Positions 29,669 through 36,521 of a DNA stretch of 36,521 bases are shown piece after piece. Below the pieces are notes generated by a model. The model was not told the origin of the DNA. It ran no database searches and worked only from the letters and a program-made list of their open reading frames with translations. Numbering within the stretch: the stretch's first letter is position 1; each line of letters starts with the position of its first letter. The stretch is from a virus (taxonomy: Duplodnaviria > Heunggongvirae > Uroviricota > Caudoviricetes). The position numbers were made by a program, and so were the translations under genes. The stretch lies in IMG/VR virus record IMGVR_UViG_2778261065_000031, positions 1-36,521 of that record; one strand, 5' to 3'.

Positions 29669-30134
29669 AATAGCCAATGAATACGCAAAGCTGATGGATT
29701 CAGATTTAGAGCCAGAGATGATTGCTGACACAATAGAAGGAATGGAAGGAGAATTTACCGATAAAATAGAGCAACTTCTTGCCATTATTAAAAATGAATC
29801 TGGTTATGCTGAACGCCTCAAGGACGAGGCAAAGTCACTAAATGAGAGAGCCGCAGTAATTCAAAATAAGATTGACAGCATTATGGCGTATATAGCGTCA
29901 TCGCTTGAAATGGTTGGCAAGAAAAAGATTCGAGCAGGTATTCACCAGGTAACAATTCGCAAACCGTCAGAAATTGTAGAAATAATCGACTCAAGCGCCC
30001 TTCCTCCTGAATACGTTGAGTTTGAAACGACAATTAAAGCCGACAAACTGGCAATCAAACACCAGCTAAAAGCAGGAATAAATATCCCCGGCGCTCAACT
30101 CAAAGTTGGGAAACCTTCACTTCTTATCAAATAA
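29652..30134 (+). CDS. Gp157-family protein (RecT-associated); GTG start
   Basis: GGAGG SD 6 nt upstream of GTG at 29652; family assignment by recall. Confidence 0.55.
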   Translation: MSKLYEIANEYAKLMDSDLEPEMIADTIEGMEGEFTDKIEQLLAIIKNESGYAERLKDEAKSLNERAAVIQNKIDSIMAYIASSLEMVGKKKIRAGIHQVTIRKPSEIVEIIDSSALPPEYVEFETTIKADKLAIKHQLKAGINIPGAQLKVGKPSLLIK

Positions 30135-30145
30135 CGGTATCGCCT

Positions 30146-30460
30146 ATGAAAAAGACTCCATGGGAGAAATGGGAAGTCGATTTCTTGCGCGAAGTGGCGG
30201 CGACAATGCCAGTTGAAGTTATCGCTGAAAAACTGGAAAGGACTGAAAAAGCAGTTATGGCGAAAGCAACAAGGATTGGCGCTGACATTGTTAGCCGACT
30301 TCGTGGAAGACGCTGGACAAGAGCCGAAGTATCACTTTTCGGTAAGTTCTCCGCAGAAGAAATAGCAATTGCAACCTGCCGCTCAATTTATTCAGTAAGA
30401 GCTATGCGATACAAGCTAAAAAAACTCAATGAAGAAAGAGCAGGCATACGAATAAATTAA
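30146..30460 (+). CDS. Hypothetical basic protein (104 aa)
   Basis: ORF in co-directional early-left array; no family recognised. Confidence 0.5.
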   Translation: MKKTPWEKWEVDFLREVAATMPVEVIAEKLERTEKAVMAKATRIGADIVSRLRGRRWTRAEVSLFGKFSAEEIAIATCRSIYSVRAMRYKLKKLNEERAGIRIN

Positions 30461-30476
30461 CATGGAGTAATTAACA

Positions 30477-30758
30477 ATGAAGCTAAACATCGACCTTGGA
30501 AAATACGTTATTACCGGAACCAAACACGACCTGATTCTTAGCGAAAGAGGAATTATCAAAGAAGGTGAGAATGCAGGGAAAGAAACACTAAGCCGTATCG
30601 GTTATTACAGCAAGTTTGAGCATCTGGTTAAAGAGTTATGCAACCGTGAAATTCTGTTATCTCAAGCGCGGACGCTACAGGATATTCAGCAGCATATCGA
30701 GACTTTAGGTGTGTCACTTAGCATGGCCGTTGACCAGTTCGTGGAGAGTAAATCATGA
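30477..30758 (+). CDS. Hypothetical protein (93 aa)
   Basis: ORF; ATGA overlap with the next small ORF. Confidence 0.5.
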
Positions 30759-30922
30759 GAGGACTTGCATACAATCCCGGCATTCTTCCGGCAGAAATGA
30801 TTATTAGCCAACGCGTAAAGCCAATGCCATCGAGAGAGGAATTGCTTAAGAGAAATTCTTTTCCATCAGTGAATCAAAACAAATATCTGAATGCGATGTG
30901 GCGCAAAGGAGGCAACCAGTGA
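30755..30922 (+). CDS. Small hypothetical protein (55 aa) ending RKGGNQ
   Basis: Below track cutoff; translationally coupled at both ends; C-terminus shared with the 31560 gene. Confidence 0.35.
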
Positions 30923-31563
30923 GTAACCGTTTTTACATGATGTGCTTGCGTGAAACTGTGGGTAATAACGCCTCATTCCATTGCCATAACGGCAATGGTT
31001 ACAGTTCTGATATCGATCGAGCACATGTTTACACGCAGGAAGAAGCCCAAAAAGCCTGGAATTGTGGTCGAGATATCGATCAGCCTGTTTGCGCTGATAG
31101 CGTGGATGCAATGGCTGTGTGGCACGTTGATTGCCAGTACATCCCTACAGAAAGCCTGATTGAGTCAGATTGCACTGCGTATGTGGCCTACAAAAAAGGT
31201 TGCTGGAATGGCAACGATGTTTACTGGCTTCAACACGGTGGATTGCCAACCGATGACTTCAGTAAAGCAACCATCTTTAGCGTCGCCAACAAAAACGAAC
31301 CAGGAATAGTTTGGTTGCCATTTTCCATTGCCGGTGCAGCAAAGCGGCGGACGTTCAATATCAATAATTTTAACCGCAGAACAATGGTTCAGGGCGCAGG
31401 TTTGATCATGCCTGACTGGTTGAAAAAGCAAAACAGAAGAAAGAAGTCACGAAGCGGGAAGGTGCGCTGGAATTGTCCGCATTGCGGAAAAATCACCTGG
31501 CAGTACAGCCCATATGATTTTGAAGGCTGTAGTGATTACAACTGTGAAGGATGGCGAGAATGA
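30919..31563 (+). CDS. Cysteine-rich protein with C-terminal zinc-ribbon-like motif (GTG start)
   Basis: AAGGAGG SD then GTG at 30919; [11 protein letters not shown]...CSDYNCEGW. Confidence 0.5.
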
Positions 31564-32252
31564 CAATTGACTATCAGGTACTGCGTGAGGCGGCAGAAAA
31601 GGCAACACCAGACGAATGGGTCGCATTTATTTCGACGGATACTGGTACTTATGCGGTGCACACGCCCGGTGATGAACGATGTGAAGACGTTATCAAATGG
31701 ACAGGCTTTGATGGACAGAAAAATGCAGAGAACAACGCTCGTCATGTTGCCGCGTTCAACCCAAAGGTTGCACTGGAGCTGCTTGGTGAAATTAAGTGCT
31801 TGGAGGACACAAATATTGATGCCACGTGCCGAATTTCAGAGCTTGAGACTAATCTCGCTGCGCTGGTGGCAGAGAACGCTGGGCTGAAACACGCAATGGC
31901 CGTAACTCTTGAGCATGTGTCGGTCACGGATGCAGGGCAGGCCGGAGTTGCTGCAATGATTATCAACGATGCCCTGCACCACAGCGAAACTCCAGCTACC
32001 GATGCTTTTCTAGCTGAAGTGAAGACTGAAGCACGCAAGGAAGGCGCTTATTTTGTGGCGAACAGAATGCTGGCTGCCTGGGAAGCTGGTTTTATTGATG
32101 ATACTGCGAAGAACGCCGCGGATATTGCCCGGATGATTCTTACCTCTACTGAGTTTATGGCTAATGCGCCGGAAGGCGATTTTGACCGCTCATTCTCTGA
32201 TGGCGTTCTCGAAGATATCGCCGCCCAGCTTCGCAAAGGAGGCAACCAGTGA
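31560..32252 (+). CDS. Ea22-like family protein (paralog 1), tentative
   Basis: N-terminal [17 protein letters not shown] and FNPKVALELLGEIK shared with the next gene; ATGA overlap upstream. Confidence 0.45.
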   Translation: MTIDYQVLREAAEKATPDEWVAFISTDTGTYAVHTPGDERCEDVIKWTGFDGQKNAENNARHVAAFNPKVALELLGEIKCLEDTNIDATCRISELETNLAALVAENAGLKHAMAVTLEHVSVTDAGQAGVAAMIINDALHHSETPATDAFLAEVKTEARKEGAYFVANRMLAAWEAGFIDDTAKNAADIARMILTSTEFMANAPEGDFDRSFSDGVLEDIAAQLRKGGNQ

Positions 32253-32956
32253 GCAAGATTGATTATCAAAAGCTTCGTAAAATCGCTGAAAAAACAAAAA
32301 TTGCTGGTGAAGCACCTGTAATGCCTTTCGATCAGCGAATTAATGCGCTTAACGATTTTATGAAGCACTTTTCGCCAGATATCGCGCTGGCATTGTTGGA
32401 TGAACGGGAAAGAAACCAGCAATACATCAAATCACGCGACCAGGAGAACGAGGATATTGCGCTAACGGTAGGGAAGCTGAGAGTTGAGCTTGAGGAAGTA
32501 AAACAACACGCTGAAGAATTATCCGAAACCAAGGCTGTTCGTAACCAATGGCGGCCAGATATTTGCCCAATAACCGGACGTGCATTTTTCATGTGGATTG
32601 AGCATCCAACATTGGGAAATGTGCCGACATATGGTGGCCCATTAGATAGTTACACCATTCCAACAAAGGACGGTGACGGTGAGTTTTCATGTGAGCGTTA
32701 CGATCATGATTTTGGCGGTTGGGTAGAAAGCGAATGTCTTGGGTTATATCTGATTGATGATAGAGAACAATGCAGGGTCTACGAACTGGAGGAACGCGTT
32801 AAGGAACTGGATGCTCGGGAAATATCGCTCCCGGAACGTAGCAGCATGCTTCATCGAACAGATTTTAACGAGGATTACCACACGGTAATGGCATACAAAG
32901 TTTCTGAAGTCATCGCTGCAATCCGCGCTGCTGGTATTCGCATCAAAGGAGATTGA
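32249..32956 (+). CDS. Ea22-like family protein (paralog 2), tentative; GTG start
   Basis: N-terminal MSKIDYQKLRKIAEK and FSPDIALALLDERE; preceded by the same 22-bp junction as the 30919 gene. Confidence 0.45.
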   Translation: MSKIDYQKLRKIAEKTKIAGEAPVMPFDQRINALNDFMKHFSPDIALALLDERERNQQYIKSRDQENEDIALTVGKLRVELEEVKQHAEELSETKAVRNQWRPDICPITGRAFFMWIEHPTLGNVPTYGGPLDSYTIPTKDGDGEFSCERYDHDFGGWVESECLGLYLIDDREQCRVYELEERVKELDAREISLPERSSMLHRTDFNEDYHTVMAYKVSEVIAAIRAAGIRIKGD

Positions 32957-32957
32957 G

Positions 32958-33473
32958 ATGGCGTTAACACACCGCGAACTCTGTCAGATTGCGTACAAGT
33001 TCCTTAAGCGCAACGGGTTCAAGGTTTGCTTTCATGACCGCTTTATAGCTGTAACCAGTACCGGAGAACAGCCAGATGCTATGGGATTCAGAAATTCAGC
33101 ATCATGCCTGATAGAGGCGAAGTGTTCTCGTGCTGACTTGTTGGCAGATAGAAAAAAGCGTTTTCGTAAAAATCCGTCTCTTGGAATGGGCGACTGGCGA
33201 TTCTTTATTAGTGAGCCGGGAATTATTTCAATTGAGGATTTACCACCTGGCTGGGGATTACTTCACGTTGTTAACGGAAGAGTACGGAAAGTACATGGGT
33301 GGCCCAGGGGTAATTGCTGTTGGGGTAATCCTGACGATAAGCCATTTACTGGAAATAAGCAGGTTGAATGCGATTACATGTTATCTGCATTAAGGCGCAT
33401 GGAGTTGAGAGGGCACCTTAATGAAATATATGACGGTGTAATTGTTAATAAGAAAGAAGGAAACGCGGCATGA
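32958..33473 (+). CDS. Putative PD-(D/E)xK-fold nuclease (171 aa)
   Basis: Candidate motif GEQPDAMGF...CLIEAKCS (PD ... EAK); 4-nt overlap with the DUF551 gene. Confidence 0.45.
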   Translation: MALTHRELCQIAYKFLKRNGFKVCFHDRFIAVTSTGEQPDAMGFRNSASCLIEAKCSRADLLADRKKRFRKNPSLGMGDWRFFISEPGIISIEDLPPGWGLLHVVNGRVRKVHGWPRGNCCWGNPDDKPFTGNKQVECDYMLSALRRMELRGHLNEIYDGVIVNKKEGNAA

Positions 33474-34189
33474 TCACTATTACCAAAGAGCGACTACTGA
33501 CAATCAAGCAGTGGCGCGAAACATACGGACCTGGTAGCAACGTTGTACTGCCAGCAGAAGAAGCGGAAGAACTGGCACGAATTGCTCTGGCATCACTGGA
33601 AGCAGAACCAGTTGCTTATATTTTCAAACATCCGGCCGGGAAATTATTCTGGGCTTTAACGGATGAAAGCAATAAAGAGCAAGCGGACGTTATTCCTGTT
33701 TATGCTGCCGCGCCTGCGTCGGTTGTGCCGGATGATGCATCAGGGTCGCTTGCTTATGCTTACAAAGAGCTTACGCCTGAGATTATGCGCGGTCATATCG
33801 CTGTATTCGAGCGATATGGAATAGCCCCAAACGATAGCATTACCACAATTCAGGCACTGCGAATCGCGCTGGATGGCATAGAGCGGAGCGACGCCATGCT
33901 TCATGGTGCCGAACCCGTAAGCCAAACTTACAAGTTGAACGAGCTATCTGGCAACTATCCGGCAACTCCGGATAGTTGGATAAGCTGTAGTGAGCGAATG
34001 CCGGAAAAGAACAAGAACGTGCTTATTTCGGTGAATTTCGACAGCTCTCTGGTTGAACCGCTAATATGCTCCGCACGCTATACCGGAAGCACATTCCGGC
34101 GAGGAGAAGCAACGATTAAGCCGGGTAATGGTATTGAGCAGGCAACTCACTGGATGCCGCTACCGGAACCGCCGCAGGAGGCGAAATGA
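33470..34189 (+). CDS. DUF551 domain protein
   Basis: C-terminal WISCSERMPEKNKNVLIS...THWMPLPEPP typical of DUF551 by recall. Confidence 0.6.
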   Translation: MITITKERLLTIKQWRETYGPGSNVVLPAEEAEELARIALASLEAEPVAYIFKHPAGKLFWALTDESNKEQADVIPVYAAAPASVVPDDASGSLAYAYKELTPEIMRGHIAVFERYGIAPNDSITTIQALRIALDGIERSDAMLHGAEPVSQTYKLNELSGNYPATPDSWISCSERMPEKNKNVLISVNFDSSLVEPLICSARYTGSTFRRGEATIKPGNGIEQATHWMPLPEPPQEAK

Positions 34190-34446
34190 TGGATGTTCAA
34201 GAGAAGGTTTTGCAGGTGATGCGTTCCCGTGCAGCCCTGCAAGAGAAAGTTCTCGGCGGGGAATATCCATTCAGGATGGCAACCTGGAGTCTGCGGTTGG
34301 CAATGGAGAAGGAATTTCCTGATGAAGAATGGCGTTCGGCAGATTTGCGCAAAACTCTTATGGAGATGGCTAAAGACGGAACAGTATCCAAAGATACCTA
34401 TGCCAGCCGGATTGGTCAGGCGGTATGGAGACTGGAGGTGAGGTAA
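34186..34446 (+). CDS. Hypothetical protein (86 aa)
   Basis: ORF; TAATG overlap with the downstream gene. Confidence 0.45.
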   Translation: MMDVQEKVLQVMRSRAALQEKVLGGEYPFRMATWSLRLAMEKEFPDEEWRSADLRKTLMEMAKDGTVSKDTYASRIGQAVWRLEVR

Positions 34447-34730
34447 TGGCTAACCTGCAACTTGCCGTAAAAGGTGAATACTTCGATGCCATGATTCGTG
34501 GAGAGAAAACGGAAGAGTATCGCTTGTGTAATGACTACTGGAATAAGCGAATTATGTTCAGGGAGTATGACCGCCTGATTATCACAAAGGGATATCCGAA
34601 GCGCGACGATTCCAGCCGTAGAATTGATGTTCCGTATGACGGATATGAAATCAAGACAATCACACATCCACACTTCGGTGATAAACCGGTAAAGGTGTTC
34701 GCGATAAAGGTGAATATCGGCAATGAATAA
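34446..34730 (+). CDS. ASCH-like (DUF3850-type) small protein
   Basis: From MANLQLAVKGEYFDAMIRGEKTEEYR; pattern fits ASCH/PUA-like phage proteins by recall; GGAGGTGAGG SD. Confidence 0.5.
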   Translation: MANLQLAVKGEYFDAMIRGEKTEEYRLCNDYWNKRIMFREYDRLIITKGYPKRDDSSRRIDVPYDGYEIKTITHPHFGDKPVKVFAIKVNIGNE

Positions 34731-34802
34731 CAATCCTCGAACTCGCGGGGATTTCTTTTATCTGAACTCACTACGGCGGGTTTTGTTTTATGGAGACAAG
34801 AA

Positions 34803-35147
34803 ATGTCAGATTTGGCTATGAAGGTTTTGAAATGGCAATCGACTGGCGATGTTGGCATCAGTAGCGCAACTCTTGCCTCAATCGCATGTGGACTGAAAAA
34901 GAATATCTATGGTCATCACTTCGGCGCTCCCCATGACGCAGCCGATTTCAGACGATGCGTTGCACTTGTTGAGCAGATTCCAGAAATCAGAGATTCATTC
35001 AACAAGGTTGCAAAGCGCGTTCCGGCATTCAAAGGAATCCTCAACGAATGGGATTCCCTCGTTGCTCTGTTGAAGTCTGAAATGAAGATACACGGAAACA
35101 AAGCACCAGAGACTTACAGAAGAATCAGCGAGCTACGCAAGGACTAA
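34803..35147 (+). CDS. Hypothetical protein (114 aa)
   Basis: ORF upstream of xis; no family recognised. Confidence 0.45.
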   Translation: MSDLAMKVLKWQSTGDVGISSATLASIACGLKKNIYGHHFGAPHDAADFRRCVALVEQIPEIRDSFNKVAKRVPAFKGILNEWDSLVALLKSEMKIHGNKAPETYRRISELRKD

Positions 35148-35251
35148 CCATGAAATAACACCGCCGGCCTGTTCATTGCTCAATGATATCCAGACCTACC
35201 ATCGCCGCATCAATGCGGCTTTTTCTTGCGTGTAATTGCGGAGACTTTGCG

Positions 35252-35470
35252 ATGTACTTAACACTTCAGGAGTGGAACGCACGCCAGCGACGTCCAAGAA
35301 GTCTTGAAACAGTTCGTCGATGGGTGCGCGAATGCAGGATATTCCCTCCTCCGGTTAAGGATGGAAGAGAGTATCTGTTCCACGAATCAGCGGTAAAGGT
35401 TGACTTAAATCGACCAGTAACAGGTAGCCTTTTGAAGAGGATCAGAAATGGGAAGAAGGCGAAGTCATGA
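35252..35470 (+). CDS. xis: Excisionase Xis; track ORF trimmed to internal ATG
   Basis: From MYLTLQEWNARQRRPRSLETVRRWVRECRIFPPPVKDGREYLF essentially identical to lambda Xis (72 aa). Confidence 0.92.
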   Translation: MYLTLQEWNARQRRPRSLETVRRWVRECRIFPPPVKDGREYLFHESAVKVDLNRPVTGSLLKRIRNGKKAKS

Positions 35471-36521
35471 GCGCCGGGATTTACCCCCTAACCTTTATAT
35501 AAGAAACAATGGATATTACTGCTACAGGGACCCAAGGACGGGTAAAGAGTTCGGATTAGGCAGAGACAGAAGGATAGCAGTTTCAGAGGCTATTCAGGCC
35601 AATATTGAGTTGCTATCCGAGAACAGGCGTGAGTCACTGATAGACAGAATTAAAGGCGCTGACGTAATCACTCTTCATGTGTGGCTTGACCGATATGAAA
35701 CAATCCTCAGCGAGAGGGGTGTCAGGCCGAAAACTCTACTCGACTACGCCAGCAAAATCAGGGCAATCCGAAGAAAATTGCCGGACAAACCGCTCGCTGA
35801 CATATCAACGAAAGAGGTGGCAACAATGCTAAACACCTACGTAGCAGAAGGTAAAGCGGCCTCCGCAAAATTAATCAGATCAACCCTTGTTGACGTTTTT
35901 CGTGAAGCAATAGCCGAGGGGCATGTGGCAACGAATCCGGTAACAGCAACCCGTACAGCAAAGTCAGAAGTAAGGCGCTCAAGGCTGACAGCTAATGAGT
36001 ATGTCGAGATTTACCATGCAGCCGAACCTCTCCCTATCTGGCTAAGGCTGGCGATGGATTTGGCCGTCGTTACAGGGCAGAGAGTCGGCGATTTGTGCAG
36101 AATGAAATGGTCAGACATAAACGACAACCATCTTCACATTGAACAGAGTAAAACAGGGGCTAAACTCGCCATTCCGCTAACGCTAACGATTGACGCGCTC
36201 AATATCTCATTGGCTGATACACTACAGAAATGCAGGGAGGCCAGCAGCAGTGAAACAATAATCGCATCAAAGCATCACGATCCGCTTTCCCCGAAAACAG
36301 TATCGAAGTATTTTACAAAGGCGAGAAATGCATCAGGACTCTCATTTGATGGAGACCCGCCAACATTCCATGAACTGCGTAGCCTGTCGGCGAGGCTATA
36401 CCGGAACCAGATTGGCGATAAGTTTGCTCAACGTCTTCTCGGGCATAAATCAGATTCAATGGCGGCGCGGTATAGGGACAGCCGTGGACGGGAATGGGAC
36501 AAAATTGAAATCGACAAATGA
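35448..36521 (+). CDS. int: Tyrosine integrase (lambda Int family)
   Basis: 357 aa; MGRRRSHERRDLPPNLYIRNNGYYCYRDPRTGKEFGLGRDRRIA and C-terminal HELRSLSARLY...LLGHKSD match lambda Int; 23-nt overlap with xis. Confidence 0.97.
   Translation: MGRRRSHERRDLPPNLYIRNNGYYCYRDPRTGKEFGLGRDRRIAVSEAIQANIELLSENRRESLIDRIKGADVITLHVWLDRYETILSERGVRPKTLLDYASKIRAIRRKLPDKPLADISTKEVATMLNTYVAEGKAASAKLIRSTLVDVFREAIAEGHVATNPVTATRTAKSEVRRSRLTANEYVEIYHAAEPLPIWLRLAMDLAVVTGQRVGDLCRMKWSDINDNHLHIEQSKTGAKLAIPLTLTIDALNISLADTLQKCREASSSETIIASKHHDPLSPKTVSKYFTKARNASGLSFDGDPPTFHELRSLSARLYRNQIGDKFAQRLLGHKSDSMAARYRDSRGREWDKIEIDK

Follow-up and report, generated by a model that had tools for sequence, protein, structure and literature searches.

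What is the 5-kb run of small genes that lies between the recombination genes and xis in the virus record IMGVR_UViG_2778261065_000031? The window, that is, the whole stretch of 36,521 nucleotides (nt) analysed here, is a P22-like prophage, and the genes in question (g1-g10 and g12) occupy positions 30146-35147 on its + strand. We consider it likely, at a probability of about 0.8, that this block represents the distal and dispensable 'ea' portion of a P22-like temperate phage's early-left (pL/N) operon, and just as likely that its counterparts are orf56-eaE...eaC of P22 and, in lambda and Stx phages, the exo-xis region. In line with this reading, the block lies on the strand of N and pL at the ea/exo-xis position, and it contains homologues of named ea/exo-xis genes. 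The original prediction of an accessory array without a core phage function is supported. The block itself is ordinary, being a known non-essential region made up of gene families found in thousands of Escherichia coli prophages.

Homologues of four P22 ea-region genes were identified. The product of g3 is 75% identical to P22 orf56 (and 92% identical to HK446 gp28), residues 94-227 of g5 are 67% identical to EaE, residues 46-97 of g6 are 65% identical to EaD, and the N- and C-terminal parts of g8 are 41% and 35% identical to EaA. The nearest relative of lambda Ea22 in the block is g6, with 36% identity over about 175 amino acids (aa) (E 1e-20).

Scanning the window for open reading frames (ORFs), we found a + strand series without a break from 30146 to 35147. 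Both GC and AT skew were positive over 27-36 kb and negative over the minus-strand late genes, with the sign flipping at about 25-27 kb, which agrees with + strand coding in the former region and leftward coding of the late genes. The supported co-directional genes (n=11) and the one long spacer among them are as follows.

30146-30460, + strand: g1, 104 aa, putative helix-turn-helix (HTH)-like DNA-binding protein (phrog_11492, E 4e-23; phrog_323 'transcriptional regulator', E 4e-20)
30477-30758, + strand: g2, 93 aa, DUF5405 protein (PF17399, 25.1 bits against a cut-off of 21.6; phrog_154, E 7e-31)
30755-30922, + strand: g3, 55 aa, DUF2737 protein (PF10930, E 1.4e-30, 105.3 bits against a cut-off of 25)
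30919-31563, + strand: g4, 214 aa, predicted to comprise a repeated pair of beta-hairpin/alpha units together with a basic helix and, at the C-terminus, a zinc ribbon
31560-32252, + strand: g5, 230 aa, Ead/Ea22 protein (PF13935, E 2.6e-24, 86.8 bits against a cut-off of 27)
32249-32956, + strand: g6, 235 aa, Ead/Ea22 protein (PF13935, E 1e-17, 65.5 bits against a cut-off of 27)
32958-33473, + strand: g7, 171 aa, protein of the PD-(D/E)xK nuclease fold whose catalytic motif is intact, with a restriction-endonuclease-like alpha/beta core
33470-34189, + strand: g8, 239 aa, EaA-like protein with a C-terminal DUF551 at residues 169-236 (PF04448, E 1.1e-21, 77.9 bits against a cut-off of 22)
34186-34446, + strand: g9, 86 aa, conserved small protein (phrog_2814, E 1e-49)
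34446-34730, + strand: g10, 94 aa, ASCH-like protein (phrog_625, E 2e-51, with the alignment starting at residue 8 of the longer ORF)
34731-34802, + strand: 72-nt spacer between g10 and g12, with a terminator-like hairpin at 34732-34753 and a T run
34803-35147, + strand: g12, 114 aa, conserved protein adjoining xis (phrog_1229, E 1e-51)

Three start codons were corrected. The start of g4 was moved from 30898 to the GTG at 30919, because a ribosome-binding site (AAAGGAGG) lies upstream of it, homologues are mostly about 210-220 aa long and the PHROG profile aligns from there; that of g5 was moved from 31551 to the ATG at 31560, as in its RefSeq homologue, and that of g10 from 34425 to the ATG at 34446, in a TAATG stop/start overlap with g9. 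With these starts, Gp157 and g1 are separated by 11 nt and g1 and g2 by 16 nt. Neighbouring genes overlap by 4 nt at g2/g3 (ATGA), g3/g4 (GTGA), g4/g5 (ATGA), g5/g6 (GTGA), g7/g8 and g8/g9, and by 1 nt at g9/g10 (TAATG); the gaps at g6/g7, g10/g12 and g12/xis are 1, 72 and 104 nt. Eight of the ten internal junctions are therefore 1- to 4-nt overlaps or a 1-nt gap, of the kind that permits translational coupling, and a Shine-Dalgarno-like GGAG/GGAGG precedes each of these eight. Judged from this arrangement, most genes of the block are probably translationally coupled.

An ORF of 32 aa at 34723-34821 was rejected as a gene. Neither PHROG nor Pfam gave a match for it, RefSeq leaves it unannotated in a relative, and it sits on a spacer that is conserved as DNA and bears the terminator-like hairpin; its ATG is missing in lambda, and its frame is broken by a 4-nt indel in TUM12368. 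Minus-strand ORFs of up to 124 aa within the block were also rejected, since they overlap well-supported + strand genes and the strand composition is contrary to them. A co-directional array between the recombination module and xis, with short or overlapping junctions, had been claimed from the DNA letters; the ORF scan, the skew, the flanking RecT/Gp157 and xis/int genes and the junctions bore this out, and only the count of about 12 genes had to be lowered to 11 on exclusion of the 32-aa ORF.

The surroundings of the block are those of a pL operon. Large minus-strand ORFs, the first of them a 639-aa gene at 1-1920, continue through 25 kb, and the early-left operon is on the + strand, with a pL-like promoter at 26528-26556. 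In order, the genes 5' of the block are N (Pfam N_peptide, E 5e-31), ral, a 149-aa gene, cIII, kil, a small Arf/gp33-like ORF, a 103-aa gene, RecT and Gp157. The immediate flanks are as follows.

28757-29668, + strand: RecT (RefSeq name in a relative)
29646-30134, + strand: Gp157 (PHROG 'Mu Gam-like end protection')
35252-35470, + strand: xis, lambda-type, 98.6% identical to lambda Xis
35448-36521, + strand: int, lambda-type

Over 26-36.5 kb, 7 promoter-like sites were observed against 17.2 expected, which gives no indication of internal promoters, and an Rfam scan of the same region at E up to 0.1 found no RNA family. The hairpin at 34732-34753 has a fold energy of -17.7 kcal/mol, with a z of only -1.7.

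The two Ead/Ea22 proteins, g5 and g6, have in common only an N-terminal IDYQxLRxxAEK segment and a coiled-coil segment. In g5, the Ea22 N-terminus and coiled coil are followed by a ETPATDAFLAEV motif, a C-terminal cassette of the P22 EaE type and a QLRKGGNQ tail. Compared with homologues in the prophage of RM12581, the C-terminal 77 aa of g5 and the N-terminal 45 aa of g6 differ; these parts are swapped relative to 97%-identical relatives, as in the constant/variable pattern of Ea22. Neither g5 nor g6 has a sequence match to the solved C-terminal domain of lambda Ea22. A protein search with the N-terminus of g6 returned 3087 Ea22-like clusters, of which the best 120 were all short Ea22 proteins that do not reveal the range of fused domains.

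HK446 gp27 (Oad2, OLD anti-defence 2) is reported to bind the OLD nuclease of P2 and to prevent its activation; Oad2, a relative of P22 EaE, is sometimes fused to EaD/Ea22 proteins, and its anti-OLD activity is reportedly highly specific (bioRxiv 10.64898/2026.07.10.737580). The similarity of g5 to HK446 Oad2 (32% identity, 28% gaps, E 5e-10) is confined to shared linker motifs, namely the coiled-coil LExxxxxLxxENAGxK, the ETPATDAFLAEV motif and the QLRKGGNQ tail, and the Ea22 N-terminus of g5 is absent from HK446 Oad2. We rejected g5 as an Oad2 orthologue, since the homology does not extend over the full length and the cassette differs. Its head is of the EaE/Oad2 kind, which makes g5 a candidate binder or inhibitor of a host defence protein.

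The protein g7 belongs to the PD-(D/E)xK superfamily by its catalytic motif and core fold, and it may act as a nuclease. In an alignment of 33 homologues (58-88% identity), E37, P39-D40 and E53-x-K55 are invariant or nearly so, and D27, E37, D40, E53 and K55 fall in the pattern GEQPD...LIExK. The family reaches no Pfam or NCBIfam family; weak Hjc matches were obtained with 15 of the 33 members, and AHJR-like matches were also weak. The motif region shared with SPO1766 (PDB 3dnx), Hjc and restriction-endonuclease-like proteins aligns as G..D..G...IE.K.SR.DF.AD, with a sequence similarity between g7 and SPO1766 that is not significant (g7 family profile, E 0.11). An additional conserved segment at the C-terminus (W122, P129, F130, K134, E137, R146, R147) distinguishes g7 from 3dnx and Hjc-type proteins. 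We take 3dnx to be a member of the MmcB-like/DUF1052 family; a literature search on MmcB, DUF1052 and SPO1766 gave only unrelated papers. In some g7 homologues, an Ead/Ea22 N-terminus precedes the nuclease domain.

Of 5426 complete E. coli genomes, 931 contain g7, and 250 of its places are on plasmids. Annotation treats it as 'hypothetical' or as a fragment with a frameshift, even though its PD-(D/E)xK site and fold are clear. By tblastn (98-99% over 171 aa), intact homologues were located in three RefSeq loci (L001 7501-8013, L002 5924-6436 and L003 9605-10117), at which PGAP annotates only a 179-nt 'frameshifted' pseudogene at the g7 start. This putative nuclease is therefore under-annotated in E. 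coli genomes. As an exonuclease partner of RecT, g7 is an unlikely candidate, since it also travels with Erf/Abc2 modules and phage-plasmids.

The predicted model of g4 is very confident (pLDDT 92.6). In an alignment of 34 sequences, a C-x2-C...C zinc ribbon was invariant and a basic segment was present; g4 has no Pfam family, and its model found no structural neighbour, with BFVD returning short uncharacterised phage proteins only. By this model, g4 is a zinc-ribbon protein of a predicted fold without known relatives, and such a confident model makes it a cheap target for structural and functional work.

The remaining proteins are small or belong to DUF families. The Pfam HTH_12 match of g1 is below threshold; g1 is 99% identical to WP_000753555 of the TUM12368 prophage, which is likewise placed after Gp157. 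The protein g2 has 98% identity with HK446 gp29, and a literature search on DUF2737 and DUF5405 returned nothing relevant. In relatives, g9 always lies between a DUF551 gene and an ASCH-like gene. For g10, RefSeq names a 98%-identical relative 'ASCH domain-containing protein', the only support for ASCH besides its own match to this family, which is below threshold. With tblastn, g12 was detected in 276 phage records, among them those of Stx, Salmonella, Yersinia, Vibrio and Arthrobacter phages, and is always 'hypothetical'. NCBIfam gave no match for any of ten block proteins, and PDB sequence searches with g4, g5, g6, g7, g8, g10 and g12 gave nothing significant. The claim that the genes are of unknown function goes too far, since 7 of the 11 belong to named families or folds (DUF5405, DUF2737, two Ead/Ea22, DUF551, the PD-(D/E)xK fold and a PHROG transcriptional-regulator family); for g10, as an eighth gene, there is just the subthreshold ASCH match.

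The block is mosaic. Matches to parts of it, in most cases at 90-99% identity, came from 4197 E. coli records, which represent 3743 of 5426 genomes, and from 587 phage records, and no record among those searched covered at least 80% of it in one place; the best matches, in Stx2c phages and the O145:H28 RM12581 prophage, had 79% coverage at 96.6% identity. The exact arrangement was not found in the searched collections; this kind of region is already known, as are near-identical copies of each gene, spread over many E. coli prophages and P1-like phage-plasmids. When breakpoints were mapped against three relatives, most coincided with gene boundaries, and a few lay within g5, g6 and g8. One breakpoint against the RM12581 prophage is at 30903, within the first of two linkers that hold a gene tail, a ribosome-binding site and the next start codon.

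30902-30926, + strand: junction linker copy 1, CGCAAAGGAGGCAACCAGTGAGTAA, with the g3 tail (...RKGGNQ-stop), a Shine-Dalgarno (SD) sequence and the GTG start of g4
32232-32256, + strand: junction linker copy 2, at the g5/g6 boundary, identical to copy 1 in 24 of 25 nt

This 25-nt direct repeat (CGCAAAGGAGGCAACCAGTGAG) at the g3/g4 and g5/g6 boundaries occurs in 2 copies, against 0 expected by chance, and its 19-mer is also present at an Ea22/Ea22 junction in loci L001 and L002. Among the first 120 IMG/VR contigs with the core (L006-L125) and the other loci examined, the 19-mer lies at 127 junctions, which bring together at least 6 unrelated gene families on the upstream side and at least 13 on the downstream side, in 22 combinations; DUF2737 is joined directly to an Ea22 gene at 13 of the 127. 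Conservation drops about 15 nt upstream of the core. The five tail codons are all identical across unrelated gene pairs, which argues for shared DNA and not for a convergent evolution of good ribosome-binding sites. At the g6/g7 boundary there is a second linker, GCGCA..AAAGGAGA.TGA.ATG, which also stands before g7 in three relatives with a different upstream gene. The junction linker sequences are AAAGGAGGCAACCAGTGAG and GCGCAYYAAAGGAGAKTGA. In addition, the spacer at 34731-34802 is 92% identical to the spacer between lambda ea8.5 and orf55 (L005 1784-1862), with different flanking genes; its role could be that of a conserved terminator or of a further linker for exchange.

Homologous recombination at these linkers is the simplest explanation of the exchange within the array. 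Linker recombination was reportedly proposed earlier for lambdoid phages, by Clark and colleagues in 2001 for phage HK620. The junction sequences provide a concrete, testable mechanism of shuffling and can serve as pointers for mining heads of the EaE/Oad2 type.

Several features of the neighbouring DNA were also recorded. The 149-aa gene after ral (27407-27856, phrog_3054) is another candidate accessory gene. A 40-aa ORF at 28349-28471, 5' of RecT, is 76% identical to HK446 gp33 over its first 21 residues and also matches phrog_2123 'recombinase' and phrog_17766; HK446 gp33 is reported to trigger the OLD defence nuclease (2026 preprint). RecT (28757-29668) is accompanied by no recognisable exonuclease partner, which resembles the use of host nucleases by P22 and not lambda Exo/Bet. 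A GC-rich hairpin with a T run at 35204-35219, 33 nt 5' of the xis start, is a possible terminator inside the pL operon; it stands at the left edge of a segment 75% identical to lambda xis-int.

We propose that, after infection or induction, one N-antiterminated transcript from pL would span N, ral, cIII, kil, RecT, Gp157, the 11 genes of the block and then xis and int, and that most of the block genes would be translated by stop/start coupling. As small accessory proteins, the products would adjust the host and the choice between lysis and lysogeny and would not build or replicate the phage. In this model, g5 and g6 would be coiled-coil scaffolds of the Ead/Ea22 type with exchangeable C-terminal heads; Ea22-type proteins would modulate the lysis-lysogeny balance, variable heads would neutralise host factors and g7 would process nucleic acid. 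The array would have been assembled and reassembled by recombination at the short junctions. The corresponding regions of lambda and Phi24B are dispensable and affect lysogenisation, induction and host gene expression (PMC3824215, PMC10789677), and Ea22 favours lysogeny (PMC7093339, PMC10834534).

Some points weigh against this interpretation. Lambda orf60a, orf63, orf61, ea8.5 and orf55 are absent from the block, so that the phenotypes of lambda and Phi24B may not transfer. Read-through of pL transcripts across the hairpins at 34732 and 35204 is assumed, and any biochemical activity of g4, g7, g8, g9, g10 and g12 is presumptive. The match of g10 to Pfam ASCH (PF04266) scored 14.3 bits, short of the cut-off of 21.2, and covered only the first 23 positions of the profile. 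As for host targets of the heads, the segment between motif and tail is unrelated in g5 (71 aa, EaE-type) and HK446 Oad2 (40 aa), and a 54%-identical Oad2 homologue fails to inhibit OLD (bioRxiv 10.64898/2026.07.10.737580). Because of this difference in the cassette and the inactivity of that homologue, g5 is not predicted to be an OLD inhibitor; its sequence makes it a candidate inhibitor of some host protein.

The same heads raise the question of whether the block is a counter-defence island, in which most or all of the 11 genes inhibit host immunity, the Ea22/EaE proteins provide swappable heads, and g7 or g10 destroys or masks immune signals or nucleic acids. In its favour, P2 OLD is directly inhibited by one protein of the EaE/Oad2 group, recombination-linked loci have been proposed to be anti-defence hotspots (bioRxiv 10.64898/2026.07.10.737580), and accessory regions of this sort have been described as rich in counter-defence genes (Silas et al.). 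The HK446 order DUF5405-DUF2737-Oad2 equals g2-g3-(g4)-g5, and an arms race would fit the 3087 clusters that share the g6 N-terminus and the promiscuous junctions. However, the experimental data on Ea22 itself concern the lysis-lysogeny balance only; the head of g5 differs from that of Oad2, leaving one distant homologue as the basis of this reading; and no link was found for g1-g4, g7-g10 and g12 in scans that included no anti-defence profile library. For the block as a whole we regard it as possible but doubtful. A PADLOC-DB 2.0 scan of ten proteins detected no defence system (best E 0.012-0.032, coiled-coil segments only), in agreement with the original prediction that the block holds no complete known one. 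The accompanying suggestion that early-left regions are sites of takeover and anti-defence genes gains one concrete support from the membership of g5 in the EaE/Oad2 group. The best-characterised takeover and anti-restriction genes of this phage (ral, cIII, kil and the Mu-Gam-like Gp157) all lie 5' of the block and not within it; ral (27148-27348), 98.5% identical to the anti-restriction gene ral of lambda, is well upstream. In a related reading, which we put forward as speculative and rather improbable, the Ea22/EaE/Oad2-type genes (g5, g6 and, as a head fused to an Ea22 N-terminus elsewhere, g7) would serve counter-defence by the exchange of cassettes, with a constant oligomerising N-terminal scaffold and interchangeable target-binding or enzymatic heads. 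If so, heads would be bounded in the DNA by ETPATDAFLAEV on one side and QLRKGGNQ-stop/SD/GTG on the other, recombination between co-resident prophages and phage-plasmids could swap inhibitor heads fast, and each head would disarm a different host nuclease, with OLD as the first known target.

Two further explanations start from g7. The block could be a DNA-transaction module assisting RecT, with g7 as a nuclease for branched DNA or ends and g4, g1 and g10 as nucleic-acid-binding helpers. It lies directly 3' of RecT and Gp157, an exonuclease partner of RecT is not evident, g7 has an intact PD-(D/E)xK site with weak Hjc-like and AHJR-like matches, and g4 has a basic helix and a zinc ribbon. However, g7 and the g4-g10 cassette also occur beside Erf/Abc2-type modules and in P1-like phage-plasmids and are thus not tied to RecT, and g4, or the g8-g10 set in this form, is missing from two of three inspected g7-bearing relatives; we judge this explanation to be unlikely. 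Alternatively, a standalone g7 nuclease could be the effector of a prophage defence or superinfection-exclusion locus protecting the lysogen, as prophage defence genes are often near int. This is very improbable: PADLOC gave no defence-family match with an E-value of any meaning, signals of internal promoters are lacking, the genes appear mutually coupled inside a repressor-controlled pL operon, and the P22-type exclusion genes sieA, sieB and gene 17 are located elsewhere. The distal ea part of the pL operon remains the preferred reading, and it can be compared with known systems.

In P22, the ea region (orf56, eaE, orf45, eaF, eaD, eaI, eaA, eaG, eaC) lies between abc2 and xis and has the same place, orientation and tight packing as the block, in a phage of the same type, with P22-like late genes on the other strand. 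P22 homologues are present for g3 (orf56, 75%), the C-terminus of g5 (EaE, 67%), part of g6 (EaD, 65%) and the ends of g8 (EaA, 35-41%), whereas g1, g2, g4, g7, g9, g10 and g12 are without a P22 counterpart and homologues of P22 eaC, eaG, eaI, eaF and orf45 were not found in the block. The recombination module is RecT/Gp157 here and Erf/Arf/Abc1/Abc2 in P22, and Int/Xis are of the lambda type, unlike those of P22. The ea region of HK446, which runs abc2, gp29 (DUF5405), gp28 (DUF2737), gp27 (Oad2) and xis, has the local order of g2, g3, (g4) and g5, with g4 inserted between g3 and g5 in our phage.

The exo-xis region found in lambda and Stx phages (orf60a, orf63, orf61, orf73, ea22, ea8.5, orf55) occupies the same position, from the recombination genes to xis, and expression from pL is expected for both. 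Ead/Ea22 genes in that region likewise have a constant N-terminus with a coiled coil and variable C-terminal domains; in one variant of Ea22, the variable C-terminal domain contains DUF551 (PMC10834534).

The P1/P7 phage-plasmids (upf87.4-upf89.5, 'EaA') carry the run of g4, two Ea22 genes, (g7), DUF551, g9 and the ASCH-like gene at 96-98% identity, in another replicon with other flanks, without g1-g3 and g12 and with additional small genes that separate g7 from the second Ea22 gene. We located this run at 3512-8503 of L002 (plasmid pPEC403_2) and at 87685-89793 of P7 (AF503408). Sharing of this run at 96-98% identity indicates that the cassette moves between integrated lambdoid prophages and plasmid prophages.

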